Source: Naegleria gruberi
Taxonomy: Eukaryota
Length of the DNA: 64,000 nt
Assembly: GCA_000004985.1 (NCBI GenBank)
Contig: GG738871.1
Strand: one strand, 5' to 3'
Shown here: piece by piece, positions 2,156 through 64,000 of the stretch
Numbering within the stretch: position 1 is the first letter of the stretch
Layout: each line of letters opens with the position of its first letter
Position numbers and translations under genes: made by a program
The notes under the pieces: model-generated
What the model saw: the letters and a program-made list of their open reading frames with translations, nothing else
The model's database searches: none
What the model was told of the DNA's origin: nothing

Positions 2156-3792
2156 ATGTTCGAAAGAGTTGATGAGAATATTAATGCTTTTTCTTGGCGT
2201 CAACAGGCTGAGTATTTTAAAGTGTTTGTTCCTCTTCCGAATCCAAACCTTAAATCCAAGGATTTAATTGTAGATATTTCATCAAAACATATTAGAGCAA
2301 GCATAAGGGGAGGTGCTGTTTTTGTTGATGTACGTTAATTTAAAATGTTTTGAAAAAACTAAACCGAAACTATCGGAAATGTTATTTGTTATTATAGATT
2401 GATTTGGCAATAGAGATTGTACCAACTGATAATGATTGGACATTAAAAAGAGGACACATTGTTTTTAAATTAACAAAACAATCTCCTATCGATCTTAAAT
2501 TCTCCTTCTATTCACCAATACAATTTTCTAATGAAGAATGCACAGAATTTAAAGATCAACCTGCTCCACTTCAAAATGAAACAAAGAGTGATTATTTCAA
2601 TTTGGTCCGTAGTGATATTATTGATTGTCATGCAAAATATGTAACAATGTGTGAGGAGTTTGAAAAGTCAACATATCCACAGGACATGGATGAACAAACC
2701 AGAGAACAAAAAGCAGAGGAATTATTTAAAATTGCAACAAAGGAAGAGGAAGATACAGATAACCTTTTGGAAGTTTTTAATATGTATAGGGAAGCAGCAG
2801 ATTTAGGACATGGGCCTTCTAGAGAAAAATTTGCAAGACTTTGTCTTATTGATGAAAATAATGAATTCGGAATTGATTCATCTCCTGAATTAGCATTTAA
2901 TTATATGAAAAAGGCAGCTATTGAAAATGGTTCTCATACAGCCTTATTCCAACTCGGAAATTACTTTATGAAGGGAATAGGAACAGAAAAGAATTATGAA
3001 AATGCTTTAATTTGTTTTGTTGAGCATACAATTATTGACGGAAATCCAACATCAATGTTTAATATTGGAGTTCTTTATCATGAAGGAGGTTCGGGTGGAA
3101 ATGGACAATCATTCAAAAAGGATTATAAAAAAGCATACGTGTGGTGGAAAATTGCATTAAACCGTGGTCATGCATTATCAGCTTACAATATTGGAATTTT
3201 ATTAAAAAGTGGAGATGGAGTTGATAAGAGCTTAGTGAAAGCATTTCAATATTTTAAACTTGCCAATTTCATGAGTGAAAAAATTCAAATTCCAACTGAT
3301 GTTCTAATTGCAATTCAAGAACAACAATTTAATGTATTTAAAGGAGAAGAAGAAATAGAACATGATTCCCCAACAGATAGCAATCAAATAGACGAGAATG
3401 AAGAAACTAGAAATATGGATTTCATGGATGAAAAGCCATTTAAAGAATTGGAAAAGAACCTAGTTTCAGAAGAGGAAGAAGATGAGGAATACGTCGATGA
3501 AGAACTAGATATTACCTCTAAATCAAGTCAAAGAAGTAGATCACCATTCAATCCACAAAGCCAAGATGCAACTCTTGAACAAGATAATGAGGACATGGAA
3601 GAAATTCTAAGACAATTATCAGAAAGTAATGGAAAAGTTTCTCCAAAAACAACATCAAGGAATAATAATGAAACAACTACTTCAACCAATCCTGAACCAA
3701 GCATTGGGTGGAAGGTAGCAGAATATGCTCTGACAATAGGTGCTGTTATTGGAATGGGCTTTTTACTAAAGAAATCCACAGAATTTCACTAA
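2156..3792 (+). CDS. CS (p23/HSP20-like) domain + Sel1/TPR-like repeat protein with C-terminal transmembrane tail anchor; two exons 2156..2329 and 2398..3792
   Basis: Exon 1 ends at GAT|GTACGT. The 68-nt AT-rich intron ends in ttattatag, and the reading frame continues in phase 0 (VFVD|IDLAIEIVPTDNDW...). Sel1-like repeats span LGNYFMKG...NIGVLYHEGG...YNIGILLKSG. The C-terminal hydrophobic segment is IGAVIGMGFLL. Confidence 0.6.
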
Positions 3793-43033: not shown

Positions 43034-45587
43034 TTAGAAGGTTGGTTCTTCTTCTTCAGCGTCAGCAGCTTTTTCATCATCAGTTGCATCAGCATCTTTT
43101 TCAGTCATTTTTACATCATTATCTTCATCCTTAGATTCTTCTGGTTTCTCAGCTTCTTCTTCCTCTCCCTCATCCTTCTTTTCTTCTTTCTTCTTACCCT
43201 CTTTCTTTTCTTCCTTCTTCTTAGTTTCTTTCTTCTTGGTATCTTTCTTTTCCTCCTTTTTAGTTTCCTTCTTTTCAGAAATTTTCTTTGTTTTCTTCTT
43301 TGTTGATTCAATTTTAGGAGATTCTTCAATTGGTTTAACTTCATAAGGAGTGAAATCTGAAGGTAATTGATAATTACTTATAGTATCAAGAAGCCATTTC
43401 TCATTTACCATATGACAAGATACAGATGATTTTGCACTTTCAGGTTCACTAACAATACAATATTGAGCTGCTCTTAAAGTATTTACACATTTTCCACCTA
43501 ATAATTCAATTAATCTCTTTAAATGTTTAGCAGGAGGTTTACAATTACTTGAAACATGAATAATTAAACCAGATAATAAAAGAAGTGAACCTTTCTTCTT
43601 TTCTTCTGTATCATCACTTGTTTGTTCTTCAGCTTCTTCACCATCTATTGAACTTGAAGATTTTCTTGATTTTCTCTTCTTTTTATCTTCTTCTGATTGA
43701 ATTAATGATCTTGATTTAGCTGAAATTTCTGAAAAATCAACTGAATATGGTTCTTCATCAACTTTTTTACCTTCTTTTTCACATGCATAAAACCAATCAA
43801 CTGTAACAATATAAGCACCAAAAGCAATTGCATAAAGTACTTTGAGTGTTCTTCTACATTTTTCATCTTTTGGAACAATTAAATGTGTAAAATATTGACC
43901 ATTATAATCTTCAAAATTGAAATTTCTATCATGTGGAGTTGCCCATGAAAAATCATTCATAATTCTTTTTGGTAATTTCTTCTTAATTATACCTGTTTCT
44001 TCATTCTTTGAAATTTCAGGTTCACTATCAATTCTTGATTGCATTGTATGAATCATTTTAAATTTATCTTCATCACCAACAGAAGACATTTCAATAATAT
44101 ATTTACCCTTAGTTGGTTTCTTAATTGCTTCAACAGGTGATTGAACATCAAAACCAGTAAAATCAAATTTTAAAATATTTCCTTCTTCATCAATTGAATC
44201 TGCTTCATCGTTATCAAAATAATCATCTTCATCATCTTCATCATCATCCCAAATTTCTGTTTCTTTCTTTGGTGTTGATTTTTTAGCTGCTTCTGGATGT
44301 AATTTTAAAAATTCTTCTTTTGCTTTTGTTGCTTTTTCATTATATGGTTTCTTTTCATCTTCTGATAAAGTTTTCCATAATTTACCTGCATCTGCAACTG
44401 ATAAATCCTTACTTTCTTTTTTTTTCTCTGCAACAAAAATATTATATGCACTTGGAGGTCTCTTTGGTTCTTTCTTTTCACTTGATGATTCTTTCTTTTC
44501 TTTCTTTTTCTTTTCATCATCTTTCTTTTCTTTCTTCTTTTTATCATCTTTAGTTTTATCATCAGTTGATTTCTTTGTGGTTGTAGTCTTTTTCTTTTCA
44601 TCATCATCTTTCTTTTTAGAATCTGAAGCCTTCTTTACAGTTGTTGTTTTACCAGTTGTTGTTGTCTTTGATTTATCATCAGTAGTTTTCTTCTTGTCAT
44701 CTTTATCCTTTGATGAACTAGCCTTTGTAGCAGTAGTAGATTTTGATCCTTTTGATTTATCATCCTTTGATTCACTTTCTTCTTTATCTTCTTTTTCTTC
44801 TTCATCATTCTTATCGGAAGATTTCTTAGTTGTTGTTTTACCAGTTGTTGTCTTTGATTTGTTATCTGTTGTAGACTTTGTTGTTGTTTTTAGTCTTTTT
44901 CTTTGCAGGTTCACTATCTTCTTCCTTCTTTTCTTCTTCATCACCTTCCTTTGATGATTCTTTTTCTTCTTCATCTTCTTTTTCTTCACCTTTCTTCTTC
45001 TTATCGGAAGCTTTTGTTGTTTTAGTACTAGTCTTTGATTTATCACTTGCAGCATCATCTCCTTTCTTTCTTTTACCTGATTCTGGTTCTTCTGGTTTAT
45101 GTTTAGATTCAATTGAAATTACTTTCTTTTGTTTTACACAATCATTAACCCATGCAGGATTTACAATTTTGATCTTATCACTTTCAGAAGCCTTCTTATA
45201 ATTTTGTGCTTTTCCTTTCAAGAATATTAAATGTGTAACCTTATCGGACCATCTTTTTAAAACTGATGCACCATCTTCTTCTAATTTTGATATAATTGCT
45301 TCACTTCCTTCATTACCAGTTGATGATGAAATATCTAAATAAAAAGTAAGACCTTTAAATAAACCATCTTTCTTTTTTGTTGTTGTTTTCTTTTTATCAT
45401 CTTTAGTTTCCTTTGATTTTGTTGTAGTTTTCTTTGAAGAAGCCTTTGATGATGATGATTTTTCTGTTGATTCTTCGTCATTTTCACTTGTAATAACAAC
45501 TTCTTCCATTTCATCAGTAGTTTCTGTTGCTGTCATTTCTTCGTCTTGTTCGTCCTTTTTGTTTTTTGTTTGTTTCTTTGGAGCCAT
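43034..45587 (-). CDS. nuclear BRCT-domain + HMG-box protein with very long K/E/T-rich low-complexity regions; reading frame switches within 44862..45112 (frameshift or unresolved intron)
   Basis: An N-terminal BRCT is present (GLTFYLDISS...THLIFLKG...IKIVNPAWVNDC). An HMG box is present (PKRPPSAYNIFVAEKK...LWKTLSEDEKKPYNEKA). C-terminal BRCT-like modules are present (YAIAFGAYIVTVDWFYAC; LLLLSGLIIHVSS...AQYCIVSEPE). Two overlapping ORFs in different frames both encode plausible K/E-rich sequence. Confidence 0.55.
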
Positions 45588-46151: not shown

Positions 46152-48414
46152 ATGAATACAATCTTCTTCAACGTTGAAAATAAGCCTATCGCAGCTTTTG
46201 CTGTTGTTTACTTGAGTGAACAAAAAGTAAACTTTAAAGTTTCAAAGAATCCAGGTATCACTTTGGCTGAATCTGCCAGTGGGTAGGTGTCTTTCTTTAT
46301 TATTATTTTTATAATAATAATAATAATTAATTTTATTATTGTTGTTGATGATGATTAAAAAGTGTGAGAGGAAACTTTAATGTTGCTCAAGTTCTTTCAA
46401 AGAATACTAAACTCGCAGCTCAAAATACTGATGACGTTTTTGTTGCTTTTGAAACTGCTAGTGAAATTGCTAAATCAGGACTTATTGAAGAATTGGATGT
46501 TTGCATGCAAAGATTAGATGCTTTACTTACAACCAAGACATATTTCTCTGGTGAAGATTTGTCTGTTTGTGATTTGTGTATTTATGAAAGTCTTAAACAT
46601 CACAAATTAGTTATGGGATATTTGAAGAGATTTGAAAAATCAATTCCAAATGTTGTTCGTTATTTCTTCACTATTCATAGAAATCCAAAGATTCAACAAG
46701 TTGTTAAAATTTTGGATAATGCTGCTAAAGCTATGACTAGTACTGATGAAGTTTTAAATCCAACTCCTGCTGCAAGGATAACAAGTCAAATTGTGACAAG
46801 ACTGAAAAGAAGGAATCTCAACCTGAAATTAATTTGGAACTTCCACATGCTCAAATGGGTAAAGTTGTTACCAGATTCCCACCTGAAGCATCTGGTTTCC
46901 TTCATATTGGTCACGCTAAGGCTGCTTTGATGAATAATTATTTTGCTAAGAAATATAATGGTAAACTTATTATGAGATTTGATGATACTAATCCAGATAA
47001 GGAAAGAGAAGAATATGAACATGCTATTCTCTCAGATTTGGAAAGTTTAGGTGTTAAACCTGATATTCATGTTCGTTCATCTGATCACTTTGATAAGTGT
47101 ATTGAATTTGCTGAACAATTGATTAGAGAAGGAAAGGCTTATATGGATGATACTGCAGTTGAAGAATTGAGAAGAATGAAAATGGAAGGTATTGAATCTG
47201 CTAACAGAAATAATTCTGTTGATAAGAATATGGAAATGTGGAAGGAATTACTTGCTGGTACTGAAAATGGAAAGAAGTCAGTCCTCAGAGCTAAGATTGA
47301 TATGAAATCATTGAATAAGACTATGCGTGATCCTGTTCTTTTCAGAAGTAAGGATAAACCTCATCCAAAACTTGGTGATAAGTATAAGGCATATCCAACT
47401 TATGACTTTGTTTGTCCAGTTGTTGACAGTTTGGATGGTGTTACTCATGCTTTGAGAACTTCTGAATATAACGATAGAAATGAACAATACTATTGGATTA
47501 TTGATGCTTTGGGTATTAGAAAGCCATTCTTGTACGATTTCAGTAGATTGAACTTTGCTAATACTGTCATGTCTAAGCGTAAATTGCAAAAGATTGTTGA
47601 TATTGGAGTTGTTGAAGGATGGAATGATCCTCGTTTCCCAACTGTTCAAGGTCTCTTACGTAGAGGTTTGACTGTTGAAGCTTTGTACAATTTCATTTTG
47701 GAACAAGGTGCTTCTCGTAACGTTGTTACTATTCAATGGGAAAAGTTGTGGGCTGAAAATAAGAAGGTTATTGATCCAAAGGTTCCAAGATATTGTGCTA
47801 TTGAAAAGACTGATATTGTTAAATTCCATTTATCAAATGGTCCACAAACTATGGAATCAAAGGAAAATGCAAAGCACAAGAAGAATGATTCTCTTGGTAA
47901 GAAGACTACCTATTATACCAATACCATTTATTTGGATAGAGAAGATGCTGCTGCCATTGAACAAAATGAAGAAGTTACTTTGATGGATTGGGGTAATGCT
48001 ATTATTCAAGAAATTGTTAAGGATGACAGTGGTAAGGTTGTTGAATTGAAGGGTGTTTTGCACTTGGAAGGTGACTTTAAGAAGACTAAGAAGAAGTTGA
48101 CTTGGTTGCCAGTTAACCCAGAAGTTAATACTGAAAATGTTCAAATTGTTCATTTCGGTCATTTGATTAACAAGATTTCTTTATCTTCTGATGATAATAT
48201 TGAAGATGTTGTTAATCGTAATTCCAAGACTGTTACTACTTCAATTGGTGATCATAATTTAAAGTCATTGAAGAAGGGTGATATTATTCAATTGGAAAGA
48301 AGAGGTTATTTCATTTGTGATGTTCCATTTGATGGAAAGTCATTGACTTTATTCAATATTCCAGATAGTGTTTCAACAAAGACAACTGCTGCTGCTGCTT
48401 CTACTTCTAAATAA
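46152..48414 (+). CDS. cytoplasmic glutamyl-tRNA synthetase (class I) with N-terminal GST-like domain; intron 46283..46362, plus an apparent -1 frame change near 46750..46830
   Basis: HIGH is present (FLHIGHAKAA) and KMSKS is present (VMSKRKL). The GST-C-like region has the ...FSGEDLSVCDLCIY... core. Exon 1 MNTIFFNV...AESASG ends at GG|GTAGGT. The catalytic frame (frame 1) opens only after stops at ~46745, while the upstream GST frame (frame 2) runs on to 46930. Confidence 0.8.
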
Positions 48415-48418
48415 AAAA

Positions 48419-51400
48419 ATGATAAACTCTAAACCAAAGAGTTTACTTCAAATTGCTAAAGATCGGAAAAACAAATTATCATCACAATCTTCTCAATCAT
48501 CTCAATCATCACAAACATCAAATGATAATAATAACACTAATTCATCATCATCATTAACAATATTGAATCATTCTAGTAATACTAGTAGTAATAACAATGT
48601 TAATACTACTAATAATATTGGAAATAATAGTACTACTACTTCTACTAATAAGACGACATCAACATGTAAATTAATAATTAAACCCAAATCTTCCATTAGA
48701 CTCTATTCCGAAACTGTTGATTTATCATTTGAATATTCAAGTGATAAAGAAAGTGACAATGACGATATTCAAATCATTCATACTCCAGTTAATAAGAAAC
48801 TTTCAACTCCTTCATCATCACTAACATCACTATCATCAACTACTTCCACTCCATCATCACTTTTAAAATCACTATCATTACTACCAAATAATAATAATAA
48901 CATGACCACTTTAAAAACCACAACTAAGAATGAAATATCAAATAATAATAATAATTTATCATCATCATTATCAACATCTACAAATTTAATAGTAGAAACA
49001 TATAGTTCATTATTAGAAGATTTAACTCAACAAGATGATGATATAAATAGTAATTCATTAAATATAAATAGTAATTCATTAAATATTAAAGAACCATTAA
49101 TTAAAAAAAGAAAACAATTTAAAATTCCAAGTTTTTACATGACAGATGAAGAAATTAAACATGACATTTCTTTATCTAAAACAATAATTCCAATTTTAAA
49201 TATTCAAGATAAATTTTCAATTCATTTTACAAAACCATTTTGGACAATTTATAAAGATGGAAATGAAATTCTATTATTAGATTTTAGAAAACCAATATTT
49301 ACAAATTTATTATTTTTAAAATTAATTTATTATTTTAATTTTAATAAAACTAAAATAATTGAAAAATCTAAATTTATACATTCAATTAAAGATTTAATTA
49401 TTTTATTAAAACCATATAGTACTTTATTAGTAAATAATGAAAATTTAGAACAATTAAAAAAGGAAATTGAAATTATTTTAAATGAAGATTTAAAAAATAA
49501 TTTTATAGAAAATGAAAATGTAAAATATGTAAATAATTTTCAATATTTAATTTTAGAATATTTAAATACAAATATTCATAAATTTAAAAATACTAAAAAA
49601 TCTAGAAATTTAAGAAAATTAAGAATGTGTGAAGAATTACTAAAAAAGGAATTTAATTCTAAATTTATAAAAAGTTTTGAAAAATCTGAAAATTCATTTT
49701 ATTCAGATTTTAATTTTAATTTATATGATTTCATGTCAATTTATTTTAATAAGGAAAAATTTGAATATTTAAATCTAAATGAAATTGATTTTAATAATTC
49801 CATAAAAGAATTTCATAAAATTTTAAATGAACTCATCATTTCAACTATATACTATAATAAGGGTCAATATATAGGTGATATTATAGCAACAAATTTATTA
49901 AAAAAATCCATAAAAAATAATACTACTATATATGGCAGTGAATACCAAAATAGTAATAATGATGAAAAACAACACCAATATTATATTAATAGTGATAATA
50001 GTGATAATGATGATAGTGATGATAGTGATAGTGATGAAGAAGAAGAAGAAGAAGAAAATGAAATAATTCTAGATAGTCATATTCCACATGGATTTGGAAG
50101 TTGGAAATTTATAGAAGAAAATAATGAAATTTTCTATAAAGGGGAATGGAAAAAAGGGAAAAAGGAAGGATTTGGTATTTTACAAACATTTGAAATATTA
50201 TATGAAGGAGAATGGAAAGAGAATGAAATGAATGGATTTGGAATATTTAAAATATTAAATGGATATCATAAAGGTAGTATTTATTATGGTAATTTTAAAA
50301 AAGGAAAGAGAAATGGATTTGGAATTCAATTTTATAAATATGAAGGAAATAATGAAATATTAAAAGATGATTTGAATGAATTTAATGAATTTTATAGAGG
50401 TGAATGGTTAAATGATGTTAGAAATGGAAAAGGTGAATTTAAATCAAAATATGAATGGAAATTGGGAGAATGGAAAAAACATGAATTTAAAAATGGAATT
50501 TTACTAATTAAGGAATGTTTAGAAATTCAAGATTCAATCATTACAAATTGTATTCATTCACAAATAGAAATTGAAAAATATTCAAAAAAAACAAAAAAAT
50601 CTCAAATTCCTTCAACTATACTTCCATTTATATTTTCATTAGATAATTTAGATAAATTAACAGTTGTAGATGCAATTATTGCATATGGTAATCAATCTAA
50701 ATCACCTAAACGTACAATTTATAATGGTTATTGTTTTAGATCAAAATTGGAAAGTCGTTGGGCTAAATTCTTTGAATGTTGTGGAATTGAATATCAATAC
50801 GAATGTAAAACTTTTATTTTAAAAGATGGAACATCATATACTCCTGATTTTTATTTACCTTTTCTCAATTTTTGGATTGAAATTAAACCAAATTATCCAA
50901 GTGAAGAAGAAAGAGTTAAAGCTCAATTATTAAGTTTTGTTTTACAAAAACAGACTAGTAATAATAATCAACATAATGAATTGACAGAATTTGAAAAGAA
51001 ATATGAAAGATATTTACAATCAAATCCAAGAATTTTCATTTTATATGGAGATGTTAGTGCTCCATTTATTAAGAAATTTCAATCAGGAGGAATGGCAATT
51101 GAATTTTTCAAAACAGATCAACAAGAAAATTCTATTCAGAATAGAACAAATAAGAGAATTACACCTCCAAGGAGTGGCAATACTACTTCTACTACCAGTA
51201 ATCCAATTAGAGAATCTGTTCTATTTAATACTACTGAACCATTGGGCTGGTGTCAATGTCATCATTGTGGTAAAATTTCACTTGAATATAGATGTAAACC
51301 CAAGTGTTGTACTAACAAGACAGCAGATAATAGTACTGCTTCGACAAGTTTAGTTGATTCAGTGGTGACATCAGAGCTTGGTCCAACTTTGAGTAATGCT

Positions 51401-51523
51401 TATTATGCAGTTACCAAATTATCGTTTGATGAATGGAGAGTGAGAAATGAAAATACATTCTTTAACAGTATAACACAAGAGATTGAAATTACAACAGAAA
51501 AGAAACGAAGTAAATTCTTTTAA
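48419..51523 (+). CDS. MORN-repeat protein with C-terminal PD-(D/E)xK nuclease-like domain and Cys/His cluster; long N/S-rich N-terminus
   Basis: MORN repeats (YKGEWKKGKKEGFGI, YEGEWKENEMNGFGI, YYGNFKKGKRNGFGI, YRGEWLNDVRNGKGE) are present. The nuclease-like core is SKLESRWAKFFECCGIEYQYE...YTPDFYLP...WIEIKP, giving E ... PD ... E-x-K. A CHHC-like cluster follows (WCQCHHCGKISLEYRCKPKCC). Confidence 0.6.
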   Translation: MINSKPKSLLQIAKDRKNKLSSQSSQSSQSSQTSNDNNNTNSSSSLTILNHSSNTSSNNNVNTTNNIGNNSTTTSTNKTTSTCKLIIKPKSSIRLYSETVDLSFEYSSDKESDNDDIQIIHTPVNKKLSTPSSSLTSLSSTTSTPSSLLKSLSLLPNNNNNMTTLKTTTKNEISNNNNNLSSSLSTSTNLIVETYSSLLEDLTQQDDDINSNSLNINSNSLNIKEPLIKKRKQFKIPSFYMTDEEIKHDISLSKTIIPILNIQDKFSIHFTKPFWTIYKDGNEILLLDFRKPIFTNLLFLKLIYYFNFNKTKIIEKSKFIHSIKDLIILLKPYSTLLVNNENLEQLKKEIEIILNEDLKNNFIENENVKYVNNFQYLILEYLNTNIHKFKNTKKSRNLRKLRMCEELLKKEFNSKFIKSFEKSENSFYSDFNFNLYDFMSIYFNKEKFEYLNLNEIDFNNSIKEFHKILNELIISTIYYNKGQYIGDIIATNLLKKSIKNNTTIYGSEYQNSNNDEKQHQYYINSDNSDNDDSDDSDSDEEEEEEENEIILDSHIPHGFGSWKFIEENNEIFYKGEWKKGKKEGFGILQTFEILYEGEWKENEMNGFGIFKILNGYHKGSIYYGNFKKGKRNGFGIQFYKYEGNNEILKDDLNEFNEFYRGEWLNDVRNGKGEFKSKYEWKLGEWKKHEFKNGILLIKECLEIQDSIITNCIHSQIEIEKYSKKTKKSQIPSTILPFIFSLDNLDKLTVVDAIIAYGNQSKSPKRTIYNGYCFRSKLESRWAKFFECCGIEYQYECKTFILKDGTSYTPDFYLPFLNFWIEIKPNYPSEEERVKAQLLSFVLQKQTSNNNQHNELTEFEKKYERYLQSNPRIFILYGDVSAPFIKKFQSGGMAIEFFKTDQQENSIQNRTNKRITPPRSGNTTSTTSNPIRESVLFNTTEPLGWCQCHHCGKISLEYRCKPKCCTNKTADNSTASTSLVDSVVTSELGPTLSNAYYAVTKLSFDEWRVRNENTFFNSITQEIEITTEKKRSKFF

Positions 51524-61400: not shown

Positions 61401-62740
61401 GCACCAACACCATTATTATTATTATCATTTGTTGTTGTTGTGGCTGCTGCTGTTGGATTATTTCTCTTCATTAATGCATTAGCCAATTGTGCACGAATAT
61501 CACCACCACTACCATCATTATCATTTGATTGTTGTGATTGTTGTTGTGGTCTTTCAGTAGATCCAAAGAAATTATTAACATCTTGATCTTCATCGAATAA
61601 ATTAACTTGATTATTAAATGTTTCACCTCCTCCCAATGTAAATTCTTCATCATTAAATGATCCTAATTTAGGTTTTAATGAAGCATCAGGTGGTGGAGGT
61701 GGAATTGAAAATCCATTCATTCCATTCATTGATGGTGGTGGAGGTGGAATGGAACCATTCATCATTGGTGGAGGTGGTGGAATTGAACCATTCATCATTG
61801 AAGGTGGTGGAGGTGGAATTGATCCATTCATCATTGGTGGAGGTGGTACACCATTCATTGAATCAAATGTATTCATATTCATATTATTCATATTACTATT
61901 CAAATTACTATCAATGGTAGAACCAACAAGTGTTGCATTATGATTTTCATGATGTGTCATTAATTTTAATTGTTCTTCTTCTTCATTTGGTATAATACCA
62001 CATAAATCTGAATTATAAAATCTTGAAGAACCAATAATAAAAGGTAAAGTTCTCTTTTTCATAATCATTGGATCAATTTGTTGAACATAATCAACATTAG
62101 CAATTGTATTTTTCATAAATTCTTCTGCTTGTCTATTATGTTCTAATTCTTCTGCATCCATTGGTAATTCATCAATATCATCAATCATTTGAGAATCAAC
62201 AAGATTCATATTTGTAAAATCATCATTACCTTCTTCTAATGGTATTGTACATGAATCTAATACTGCATTTAATCCATATTTAATAGCTGTTGTAAAACGT
62301 TGTTGTTTTTCTTCAGGTGTTAATTCTTTAATTAAATCAATATTTGAATTATTATCATTTATATTATTAGAATTATTCATATTATTATTAGAATTCATAT
62401 TAGAATTCATATTAATATTATTTGAATTGTTATTTGGATCAATAGTATGATCAATAATAACTCTATTTTCAATAAATTGAGTATTAGATAACATTATAAA
62501 TTCATTAAATGAATTTCTAACTTGTACTTCACAAGATTGAGTATCATAAATTAAATCATCAACTGCATCTCTAACATTATTCATTTGTGTAAATAATCTT
62601 TGTGAATATCCTTTTAGATAATCTAATAATCCTTCATCACTATCAATGGTCCATCTTTCACATTTCTTTAAATTATTTATTTGTGAAAAATCTAATCTTT
62701 CAGATGATGTTATAACTGATTGATTATCATCCATCATCAT
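58403..62740 (-). CDS. washc2: FAM21/WASHC2 (WASH complex subunit) with N-terminal head domain, poly-proline segment and >15 LFa-type acidic Leu-Phe motifs
   Basis: FNEFIMLSNTQFIENRV matches the FAM21 head motif FNDFLMLSNTQFIENRV. The tail carries repeated SSLF(D/G)(D/E)n(F)xFKP units, which are LFa motifs. The ORF is 1445 aa. Confidence 0.85.
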   Translation of the reverse strand: MMMDDNQSVITSSERLDFSQINNLKKCERWTIDSDEGLLDYLKGYSQRLFTQMNNVRDAVDDLIYDTQSCEVQVRNSFNEFIMLSNTQFIENRVIIDHTIDPNNNSNNINMNSNMNSNNNMNNSNNINDNNSNIDLIKELTPEEKQQRFTTAIKYGLNAVLDSCTIPLEEGNDDFTNMNLVDSQMIDDIDELPMDAEELEHNRQAEEFMKNTIANVDYVQQIDPMIMKKRTLPFIIGSSRFYNSDLCGIIPNEEEEQLKLMTHHENHNATLVGSTIDSNLNSNMNNMNMNTFDSMNGVPPPPMMNGSIPPPPPSMMNGSIPPPPPMMNGSIPPPPPSMNGMNGFSIPPPPPDASLKPKLGSFNDEEFTLGGGETFNNQVNLFDEDQDVNNFFGSTERPQQQSQQSNDNDGSGGDIRAQLANALMKRNNPTAAATTTTNDNNNNGVGANNANISGNDNHTQSLDNIFGNNEDDGLFGSGLFGFSSNTNTNNKRRNSDEFDLNQLEKDLDIGFGGFGLTTSSNNTNTNTNSNTTANNNTATSNIPKATKKSFFDEEEEEEGGLFGGGNITTKQPTNQPSIVNTIVSSQQPKETSKVASGLFDDDEDFSIIPTSKNVTTKKSNAPKISMNSTLFGDEEEESLFAKPSTTPSTTTNTTNTPTTTTNSSSTAGNRASVAMKSSLFDDEEEEFSFKPKTTTTPTTTAGNRASVSMKSSLFEDDGEDFAFKPVIKKEESPIVKKEEPIKKIVEPIVEEKKVVEPTTTTNSIPIKSDADADDKPSDIRSKLGSSIMKGLQANLSGSYVSTRKLTNTEPEVKQQPAEEESTSDLTFTRQEPIQPKPAANTTTTTSASATTKKSSLFDDENDGEQDEFSFKPSKKEVIVPPKQSPIVTKKSSLFDDEDDDFTFKPIVKKETPKPTTVEEPIKKEEPKSIIPIIQPKPAVVSTTMEETSEVISLPTESTKANYARDGSSGVKLEHASLGRPKRSKNRGGANSNGNTSTSSTTTKSSSTSSTTTPVLEQPKQVKKEEPISAVIEKETKKSTLFDDDFTFKPIVKKETPKPAVVAEEPIKKEEPKTVKKTSSLFGNDESDDFKPIVKPSTPKVEETKQVEEPKPVKKTSSLFGNDESDDFKPIVKKETPKPAVEETPKPVVEPIITKEEPIKKEEPIVTPLVAAEQPKEVKKPAKKTSSLFGDDDDDFNFIKSSNNDDKKSKRMADREKKIESTKLFGGEIDDPLLTSGNTKKSSSTQSTPTSTTTTPVAAEKKEIASPLTTTTPVNNNTPTLSTTSTTTTTTTSNVTPTSTPTTQSTPTTEKKKSSSSLFGDDPLDAMLSGTSAPPKKKKPEVVKKQKNDIDSFVDDILGGPIKEKTTSQPKPTKKGNVIDEIVNGKSTSSGLFDDDMSSSSSKKKTTTTTKSSSLFDASAASDENKSSPATTKKKKGDFHNDLFDF
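59160..60060. repeat. near-identical ~120-bp intragenic tandem repeats within the FAM21 tail-coding region
   Basis: The unit ctggttttggagtttccttctttacaattggtttaaa(a/t)...tcatcattaccaaa(c/t)aatgaactagtctttttaactg recurs at ~59325, ~59463, ~59563 and ~59995. The antisense ORF at 59010..59858 shows the corresponding repeated peptide SSLSSLPNNELVFLTG three times. Confidence 0.6.
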
Positions 62741-63201
62741 TTTGTTGTTGTTATTATTATGTTGTTATGTTGTTGTTATGTTATTGTTATTATATTATTG
62801 ATAAAGAATCACACAACGATGAAAAATAATGATGTGATGGCGATGATGTATTTTTTTTATTAATGAAAATATCTTGTAAAACACTCCGTTGCAACCTCGA
62901 GGTAATAGAAAGGAGTTAGTTCATCATAAGTTACATGTTCTTGTTAGTCTTGATGATGATGTAAGAAAATTATTGATGAATAGATTTGCATATTGATCAA
63001 ATTGTTATTATTATTAAATAGTATTAAAAGAACATGAACAAGTGCACTGCTGCTAAAAGGTAATATTTAGTGAATATTTAGGAAATATTTAGCCTTCAGT
63101 AGTTGGCGGATCTTGTGTTTTGTACCATATCTCTCAAGACATTGTTACTAACTCTAATTTACATTTCAAAATTGAAAAATAAATATTAAATTAATTATTT
63201 A

Positions 63202-64000
63202 TTATTGTGAATTATTTGATGTATTTGAAAATAACTTGTTCAAAGTATTTAAAGTTGTATTAACATTTAAAGTAATATTCTTTACAACATGTTCATTATT
63301 ACTTTCAATTTCAAATGTTAATTTTGTTAAACCCTTTTCTTGTGCATCTAATAAATTATCAATTTCTAAAATAATACTTCCAATTATATTCTTATTTAAT
63401 TTCATTTCTACATTAAATATACCTGGTTCATTCATTGAAATATAAAAATTAATATTTCCATATAAATTCTTATTATTTCCATTATTATTATTAGAATTAT
63501 TAGAATTATTAGAATTATTTCCATTATTATTATTATTATTATTACTATTTATATCCAAAATAATTTTATTTTTATCAAATAATTGTTTAAAAGTAAATTT
63601 AAAAATTTTCTTCTTCTTTTCAAATTGTTTTTTTCTACAATCATTAATAAAATCATTTAAAGATTTAATTTTATCTTGTAAAAATTTGTAATGTTCTTTT
63701 AATTGTTCTAAAGAATCATTTAATCTTTGAATTTCCTTTTTTAATTTTTCTCTATTATGTTTTTTATTTTGTAATTCTTTAATTAAATCTAATATTAATT
63801 TTCTATATTTAGAAGTATTATTAATTGATATTAAATATTTAATTTCTATTAATTTTTGTAAATCATTTTTTAATTCATTAATTTTATCAATAATTTTTTT
63901 AAACTTTTCAAAATTTGAATTTAAATTATTTTTATAATAAATTTCACATGAATTTAAAATTTCAATAAAATTTTCATTAAATTCAAAATCATTTGGTAAA
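63202..64000 (-). CDS. partial gene (5' end beyond window): coiled-coil protein with poly-N tract and C-terminal beta-rich domain
   Basis: The open frame runs to the window edge, with a K/E/L heptad region at 63560..64000. The stop is at 63202. Confidence 0.4.
   Translation of the reverse strand, partial: LPNDFEFNENFIEILNSCEIYYKNNLNSNFEKFKKIIDKINELKNDLQKLIEIKYLISINNTSKYRKLILDLIKELQNKKHNREKLKKEIQRLNDSLEQLKEHYKFLQDKIKSLNDFINDCRKKQFEKKKKIFKFTFKQLFDKNKIILDINSNNNNNNNGNNSNNSNNSNNNNGNNKNLYGNINFYISMNEPGIFNVEMKLNKNIIGSIILEIDNLLDAQEKGLTKLTFEIESNNEHVVKNITLNVNTTLNTLNKLFSNTSNNSQ

Follow-up and report, generated by a model that had tools for sequence, protein, structure and literature searches.

T7 endonuclease I and archaeal Hjc are dimeric, two-metal, structure-selective junction nucleases. 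In the case of T7 endonuclease I (gp3; PF05367; PDB 1m0d and 2pfj) the first helix and strand are swapped between the subunits, and a superfamily census of 2012 listed PF05367 under 'Prokaryota & phages', with no mention of MORN (PMC3424549). Here we describe a gene of Naegleria gruberi, located in a stretch of 64,000 nucleotides (contig GG738871.1 of assembly GCA_000004985.1; hereafter the window), whose product carries a nuclease module of this type behind a set of MORN repeats and ends in a short motif resembling those used by other repair proteins to bind MLH1. It probably represents an undescribed nuclear DNA-repair or recombination nuclease, not a membrane enzyme, and on balance, although by no wide measure, we favour a nuclear, structure-selective DNA endonuclease built on a domesticated phage nuclease module and recruited by MLH1.

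The motif of yeast EXO1 that serves for comparison at the C-terminus is RSKFF. The consensus of the MLH1-interacting protein (MIP) box, (R/K)SK(Y/F)F, binds MLH1 at the S2 site of its C-terminal domain (PMC13473659), and a minimal form, Sx(Y/F)F, is common to EXO1, BLM and FAN1 (PMC8324060). Human EXO1 carries RSRFF (PMC12049449), which is nearly identical to the RSKFF of the window protein, both being placed in a disordered tail near a nuclear localisation signal (NLS). The nuclease fold of EXO1 (Rad2/XPG), in contrast, is unrelated to that of the window protein. Bacterial MutH, a PD-(D/E)xK nuclease activated by MutL, provides a looser analogy. The closest functional analogy appears to be FAN1, a repair nuclease of the VRR-NUC type: like the window protein, it is a eukaryotic protein with a junction-resolvase-like PD-(D/E)xK module that is otherwise found stand-alone in phages and bacteria (PMC4103454), and MLH1 is bound through its Sx(Y/F)F motif (PMC8324060). 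Naegleria genomes encode MLH1, MLH3, PMS1/2, EXO1 and MUS81 (PMC9928731).

Full-text literature searches for MORN repeats paired with a nuclease, a resolvase or endonuclease I returned no relevant description. The first-pass annotation of this DNA, made from the sequence alone, had regarded a MORN-nuclease fusion as a non-textbook architecture. What appears to be new here is a known catalytic fold within an undescribed eukaryotic architecture, with a specific candidate link to MLH1.

Nuclease core and Cys knuckle

The nuclease identity of the C-terminal region is well supported, the match to its motifs lying far beyond chance. Comparison with PHROG gave matches to phrog_21138 over the core (E 9.4e-21) and to phrog_9019, labeled 'Holliday junction resolvase' (E 4e-10), while T7 endonuclease I was the sole solved family detected by sequence in the PDB, with E-values of 0.004 for the single sequence (phmmer) and 8.6e-7 for the family profile; no other family was found by that profile at E < 0.1. 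The order and spacing of the helix glutamate, the PD and the ExK motifs are the same in both, E778 (KLES), D810 (TPDF) and E821/K823 (WIEIKP) aligning to E20, D55, E65 and K67 of T7 endonuclease I. All four residues are invariant in each of three alignments, comprising 22, 84 and 10 sequences, and further invariant columns of the 84-sequence alignment include R774, S775, Y794, E795, Y807, P809 and F811.

An AlphaFold2 model of residues 752-1034, built on the 84-sequence alignment, reached a predicted template modelling score (pTM) of 0.77 and a predicted local distance difference test (pLDDT) value above 90 in the core, and displayed the alpha-beta-beta-beta-alpha-beta order of the PD-(D/E)xK fold; the first helix bears E778, D810 stands where a strand begins, and the strand after it carries E821/K823. 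A Foldseek search of the PDB with the model gave nothing at E <= 0.001, though the structures listed are PD-(D/E)xK nucleases. The proposal of the first-pass annotation, a PD-(D/E)xK nuclease-like domain, is thus borne out by the profile matches and the invariant catalytic residues; it had named a non-nuclease fold, or D/E/K residues varying among orthologues, as grounds for giving the proposal up, and neither was observed. Judged by its sequence, the region is a PD-(D/E)xK nuclease of the T7 endonuclease I lineage whose E/D/ExK site is intact.

The first-pass annotation had also named TnsA, VRR-NUC and Hjc as nucleases with this catalytic arrangement. At the level of sequence, membership in these families did not hold, since the hidden Markov models of these families did not recover the module as a member; the similarity is confined to the fold and membership in any of the three was ruled out. 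Archaeal Hjc and Hje display no detectable sequence similarity to it, and 11-19% identity in structural alignment. A relation to anti-phage defence was also considered and set aside, the matches given by PADLOC being weak, restricted to the core (HEAT_CxxC_PD-DEXK, E 0.0036) and uninformative. The search of NCBIfam gave no relevant match.

Downstream of the core lies a cluster of Cys residues which we regard as a putative metal-binding knuckle with the pattern CxxC...C(C/H). C947, C950 and C963, corresponding to module residues C196, C199 and C212, are invariant or nearly so and are followed by either C or H; in the model these cysteines sit on two beta hairpins with pLDDT values of about 90. 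The knuckle is common to the eukaryotic proteins and to their phage and bacterial homologues. It had been described as a 'CHHC-type' cluster, a label we do not retain because all the orthologues examined have other residues in place of H948 and H949 (CQCSAC, CQCPTC, TQCNMC, CECDKC); for the same reason, a CHHC zinc finger of the U11-48K/TRM13 type was rejected. The module closes with a conserved helix (model residues 240-248, pLDDT about 92). Unlike the window protein, T7 endonuclease I is devoid of the Cys knuckle, of this AYxxA..F terminal helix, of MORN repeats and of the linear motifs described below.

Because the spacing between the E helix and the PD strand nearly equals that of T7 endonuclease I, a dimer acting on branched DNA is the default expectation: the protein would cut branched or distorted DNA (junctions, forks, flaps, loops) by two-metal chemistry, as a dimer like T7 endonuclease I and Hjc.

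The C-terminal tail and MLH1

At or near the C-terminus, a MIP-like motif is present in 12 of the 16 eukaryotic members of the family and in none of the 220 prokaryote-type members. The tails read KKRSKFF in the window protein, RKSKFF in N. lovaniensis, KKSKFFQ in Willaertia magna and KKKSKYF in the metagenomic Naegleria-like contig L086 (in an alternative frame); those of other protist sequences read KSKYF (P0004 and P0118), SSKYF (P0003), SSQYF (P0114), SSRYFSL (P0116), RSKYW... (P0117), RSRFF... (P0206) and KSKYF... (P0156). The 30-60 residues ahead of the motif cannot be aligned among the eukaryotic proteins, and after shuffling each tail the motif fell within the last 12 residues in 0.2-1.3% of the trials. 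The last eight residues of the model have pLDDT values below 50, and disorder is predicted for them. The terminal RSKFF thus combines what the sequence of a MIP box should display, namely the consensus, disorder and conservation among orthologues, from which we infer that it may dock on MLH1.

According to the mechanism that we propose, the KKRK motif preceding the N-domain would confer nuclear import, the MORN sheet would act as a platform for dimerisation or partner binding and not as a membrane anchor, and the disordered RSKFF peptide would dock on the MLH1 C-terminal domain at its S2 site, as in the case of EXO1 and FAN1. In this manner MutL complexes would recruit the nuclease to intermediates of mismatch repair or recombination, with acidic/hydrophobic N-terminal motifs possibly adding a SUMO-dependent recruitment.

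Several points weigh against this mechanism. The motif lies at the extreme C-terminus, whereas known MIP boxes are internal; the eukaryotic subclade formed by P0115 and P0120, and also P0249, are devoid of it; the assignments of the N-terminal motifs, both SUMO-interaction motif (SIM) and NLS, are pattern matches only; and the 'Holliday junction resolvase' labels of the phage homologues rest on similarity. Moreover, the Pfam model Phage_endo_I (PF05367) scored 21.1 bits (E 2.6e-4), under its gathering threshold of 29.1, and the orthologues gave 15-21 bits.

The first two of these points speak for a protein acting independently of MLH1, either an active nuclease whose SK[FY]F end binds another partner (for instance, another reader of 'FF' motifs) or mainly a DNA-binding scaffold. 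In ELM the MIP, PIP (PCNA-interacting protein), APIM (AlkB homologue 2 PCNA-interacting motif) and RIR (REV1-interacting region) motifs are treated as related (PMC7145657), which also speaks for this alternative. We grant it a minor share of the probability, given that the end of the window protein matches (R/K)SK(Y/F)F exactly in all five residues, and a pure scaffold is disfavoured because the catalytic residues are invariant. PIP and RIR were both ruled out by inspection: the Q and the hydrophobic residue that a PIP box requires at positions 1 and 4 are missing, and nothing follows the FF, while RIR motifs need residues after it.

If RSKFF docks on MLH1, a new class of nuclease would join the few clients of the MIP box (EXO1, FAN1, BLM/Sgs1, Ntg2 and Rad5/SHPRH), and the protein would offer a simple system for the recruitment of structure-selective nucleases by MutL. 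It would be the second case, after FAN1, in which a stand-alone PD-(D/E)xK module of phages became a eukaryotic repair enzyme, and would amount to a horizontally acquired eukaryotic counterpart of MutH or FAN1. The matter also bears on the meiotic and recombination machinery of Naegleria, where sex has never been directly observed.

Stand-alone relatives and the eukaryotic clade

When 1.84 billion cluster representatives were scanned exhaustively with HMMER, 12,494 homologues reached E <= 1e-3 and 3,601 of these reached E <= 1e-10, nearly all of them stand-alone proteins of 170-260 aa. Almost none carries a Pfam or NCBIfam assignment; the gene thus calls notice to a family without a Pfam model whose sequence clusters, from phages and bacteria, number over 12,000. 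The family members are collinear with residues ~760-1010 of the window protein (core, helix, strand, knuckle and terminal helix) and share the pattern YNGYxFRSRLEARWAvFFD...YEYE...YxPDF(Y/W)LP...W(I/V)E(I/V)K, followed by W-C-x-C-x-x-C...C-x-C and AYxAARxARFE. Prokaryotic members match the phrog_21138 profile over its full length and possess the three elements by which we recognise the family, namely the core, the knuckle and the AYxxA..F(E/D) helix.

Identity between the phrog_21138 family (also phrog_9019 and phrog_945) and the eukaryotic form is 33-39% when the module is taken as a whole and 50-60% within the core; the former proteins stand alone and end in ARFEhGE, whereas the eukaryotic form adds an N-domain, MORN repeats, signatures of its own and a basic tail with the MIP-like motif. 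The idea of a domesticated, phage-type nuclease, put forward in the first-pass annotation, is therefore a fair description, as the module, which makes up the C-terminal ~270 aa, is shared in full, with Cys cluster and C-terminal helix, by thousands of stand-alone phage and bacterial proteins.

Where annotated, the homologues in phages of Gordonia, Mycobacterium, Bacillus, Pseudomonas and other hosts are called 'hypothetical' or 'Holliday junction resolvase'. The homologue of Gordonia phage CheeseTouch, gp93, adjoins a RepA-like initiator and a DnaB-like helicase, and others are found on actinobacterial plasmids. On plasmids of Streptomyces (H27-H38; Streptomyces clavuligerus and others) the gene often lies about 1-7 kb from the end of the record, which may hint at a link to the ends of linear replicons. 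Variants of the stand-alone form were also seen: in P0010 the module is joined to a nucleoside 2-deoxyribosyltransferase-like domain, and P0012, P0197 and P0234 have insertions of 100-150 residues between the nuclease core and the Cys knuckle.

About sixteen members are of the eukaryotic type: those of the window, N. lovaniensis, W. magna and the Naegleria-like metagenome contig, together with the protist sequences P0003, P0004 (EukProt), P0114-P0118, P0120, P0122, P0156, P0206 and P0249. They form one clade in a neighbour-joining tree that was calculated, without support values, from the 90-residue core and included about 230 prokaryote-type sequences, and they share the signatures YTPDFYLP, IKPxYPTEEER, PF(I/V)KK and AIEF. 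Most of them consist of a disordered N-terminus, the conserved N-domain, six MORN repeats and then the nuclease module. The most likely origin of this clade, as judged from the sequences, is one ancient transfer from a phage or bacterium to a eukaryote. A nuclease type catalogued as exclusive to prokaryotes and phages (PMC3424549) is here a conserved, syntenic eukaryotic gene.

A wider proposal, which we advance tentatively and with less confidence than the function of the window protein itself, is that some protists (Heterolobosea and other lineages) hold an unrecognised MLH1-partner nuclease of the T7 endonuclease I type, captured once, equipped with MORN repeats and SUMO-interaction motifs as well as a MIP box at its C-terminus, and acting with MutL in mismatch repair or crossover resolution.

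Since the module is typical of phages and its distribution among eukaryotes is patchy, a selfish or viral element has to be weighed, be it an endonuclease of the homing type or a gene recently inserted from a phage or a giant virus. We find this barely credible. The gene occupies the same locus in the window, in N. lovaniensis, in W. magna and in the metagenomic Naegleria-like contig, its flanking genes are housekeeping genes, and the eukaryotic copies form a single clade with eukaryote-specific additions. Among the kept IMG/VR loci there was no match to the full-length eukaryote-type protein; the scan gave at least 286 contigs with phage-type matches, all limited to the core (module residues ~5-105), on which ground a giant-virus or other viral origin of the eukaryote-type protein was rejected. 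Taken together, the conserved synteny, the monophyly of the copies and the housekeeping genes beside it favour a resident gene of the cell over a mobile element or a recent viral insertion.

Apart from the clade's usual arrangement, P0249 (L003 4001-6922, JGI metagenome 3300037466) is a poly-Asn-rich, eukaryote-like protein of 973 aa in which the nuclease-plus-Cys module, with TIDF as its PD motif, follows a large unrelated N-terminal region without MORN repeats or any Pfam match. It is a second, different eukaryotic architecture for the nuclease module.

MORN repeats, N-terminal region and locus

The features of the gene and its product are listed in Table 1.

Table 1. Positions in the window of the MORN-nuclease gene and of the features of its product.
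Feature	Position	Strand	Basis or remark
MORN-nuclease gene	48419..51523	+	complete single-exon open reading frame, 1034 aa plus stop
N-terminal low-complexity region, Ser/Asn/Thr runs (aa 1-226)	48419..49096	+	sequence; probably disordered
SUMO-interaction-like motif ESDNDD-IQII-H (aa 111-121), acidic run plus hydrophobic core	48749..48781	+	pattern scan
Basic KKRK motif, NLS-like (aa 229-232), directly before the N-domain	49103..49114	+	orthologue alignment
Conserved N-domain (aa ~256-361; F.I.FT.PFW...LD..PIF....FLK)	49184..49501	+	orthologue alignment
Low-confidence helical linker, first half-MORN (KGQYIGD, aa ~481-487) and poly-acidic insertion (aa ~494-551)	49502..50077	+	
MORN repeat beta-sheet (aa 554-728), six repeats including the split first	50078..50602	+	
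PD-(D/E)xK nuclease core, T7-endonuclease-I-like (aa 765-876)	50711..51046	+	
Catalytic-residue span	50750..50887	+	E778 (50750-52), D810 (50846-48), E821 (50879-81), K823 (50885-87)
Cys cluster W-C-Q-C-H-H-C...C-K-P-K-C-C (aa 944-964)	51248..51310	+	putative ligands C947, C950, C963, C964
Conserved C-terminal helix of the module, LSNAYYAVTKLSFDEW (aa 991-1006)	51389..51436	+	aligns to the AYxAARxARFE end of phage/bacterial proteins
R-S-K-F-F (aa 1030-1034), MIP-box-like, preceded by basic KK	51506..51520	+	consensus match

The MORN repeats scored 41.3 bits against Pfam MORN (PF02493; cut-off 22.5), which establishes membership in that family, and were modelled with pLDDT values above 90. The first-pass annotation was right about the repeats but counted about four of them, where the orthologue alignment gives six, the first being interrupted by the poly-acidic insertion. 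It had also seen in them a possible membrane tether, that is, a nuclease processing DNA or RNA at a membrane by means of MORN repeats that bind phospholipids. This reading found no specific support, with no transmembrane-segment prediction or other search for a membrane anchor made, and we rate it as very unlikely: in structural work MORN repeats act as protein-protein and dimerisation modules, and TbMORN1 displays no membrane or vesicle binding (PMC7725318). The top structural matches of the MORN region are mostly axonemal or other protein-complex MORN proteins, and the linear motifs, of nuclear and repair type, point to the nucleus instead. Between the last repeat and the nuclease module, the motif (K/R)xx(I/V)P(S/Q)x(L/F)L (KSQIPSTILP in the window, 50540-50600, aa ~708-728) is conserved in orthologues.

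Residues 1-226 are poorly alignable between orthologues with the exception of short motifs. SIM-like motifs were searched for in nine sequences with a pattern requiring a hydrophobic core [VIL]x[VIL][VIL] and at least four acidic flanking residues. At this pattern level, the N-terminal region matched in six of seven distinct full-length orthologues (eight of the nine sequences when the cluster mates P0261 and P0262 are included), with examples such as VIDLVSDDEDE, IHILDD, IIIIDSDED and VIDLTQEEEE; the N. lovaniensis protein P0002 gave no match to the pattern, FIDLT being recognised only by eye. Counterparts of the KKRK motif in the aligned orthologues are KRKK (in two) and KKLKK. The N-domain following it had no match in Pfam or PHROG and was modelled as four strands plus helices (pLDDT about 80); the linker and acidic insertion, model residues 268-325, stayed below 50.

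The N-terminus also enters into the question of a mitochondrial Holliday-junction resolvase, in which a T7-type phage enzyme would have been recruited for recombination intermediates of mitochondrial DNA. The T7 junction resolvase is the closest solved relative, mitochondria use an RNA polymerase, Twinkle and Pol gamma derived from T-odd phages, and the N-terminus of the window protein, MINSKPKSLLQIAKDRKNK, is basic. Nevertheless the N-terminal 220 aa are of low complexity and not conserved as a presequence, and the conserved motifs are nuclear or repair-type (KKRK, SIM-like, MIP box), the partner of the MIP box, MLH1, being nuclear; we consider a mitochondrial enzyme unlikely.

The reading frame is uninterrupted from the ATG at 48419 to the TAA at 51521-51523 (1034 codons). 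A glutamyl-tRNA synthetase (GluRS) gene lies upstream on the same strand, with 4 nt (AAAA) between its stop codon and the ATG (window 48412-48421), and a convergent coiled-coil/WD40 gene ends 19 nt downstream of the stop codon of the MORN-nuclease gene. The position after GluRS is kept in four heterolobosean assemblies, and the complete order of the three genes is also found in N. lovaniensis (L001) and in the metagenomic contig L086. In W. magna, the model KAL9645842.1 (P0113, 1443 aa) joins GluRS to the MORN-nuclease orthologue, which could be an annotation artefact, co-transcription or a true fusion.

Frame breaks in two orthologues are probably homopolymer assembly errors and do not mark pseudogenes. 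The N. lovaniensis model P0002 (776 aa) stops early at a T5 run (L001 8320-8335, PYSW02000009.1), and one added T would join it in frame to a continuation of 175 aa in which both the KSKFF end and the Cys cluster are found. In P0001, the orthologue from the metagenome, there is a similar shift of 1 nt at a G run (L086 ~3355-3375), the alternative frame being the one that ends in KKKSKYF.

The GC content falls to 0.22 at window positions 48001-50000, a value equalled or undercut only in 62001-64000, and this dip coincides with those low-complexity coding segments of the MORN-nuclease gene that are rich in Asn/Ser/Thr and Asp/Glu. Two genes upstream of it, at 43034-45112 on the minus strand, the window contains an open reading frame of 692 aa with an HMG box and a BRCT domain, whereas in N. 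lovaniensis a BRCA2 homologue is located upstream of GluRS.

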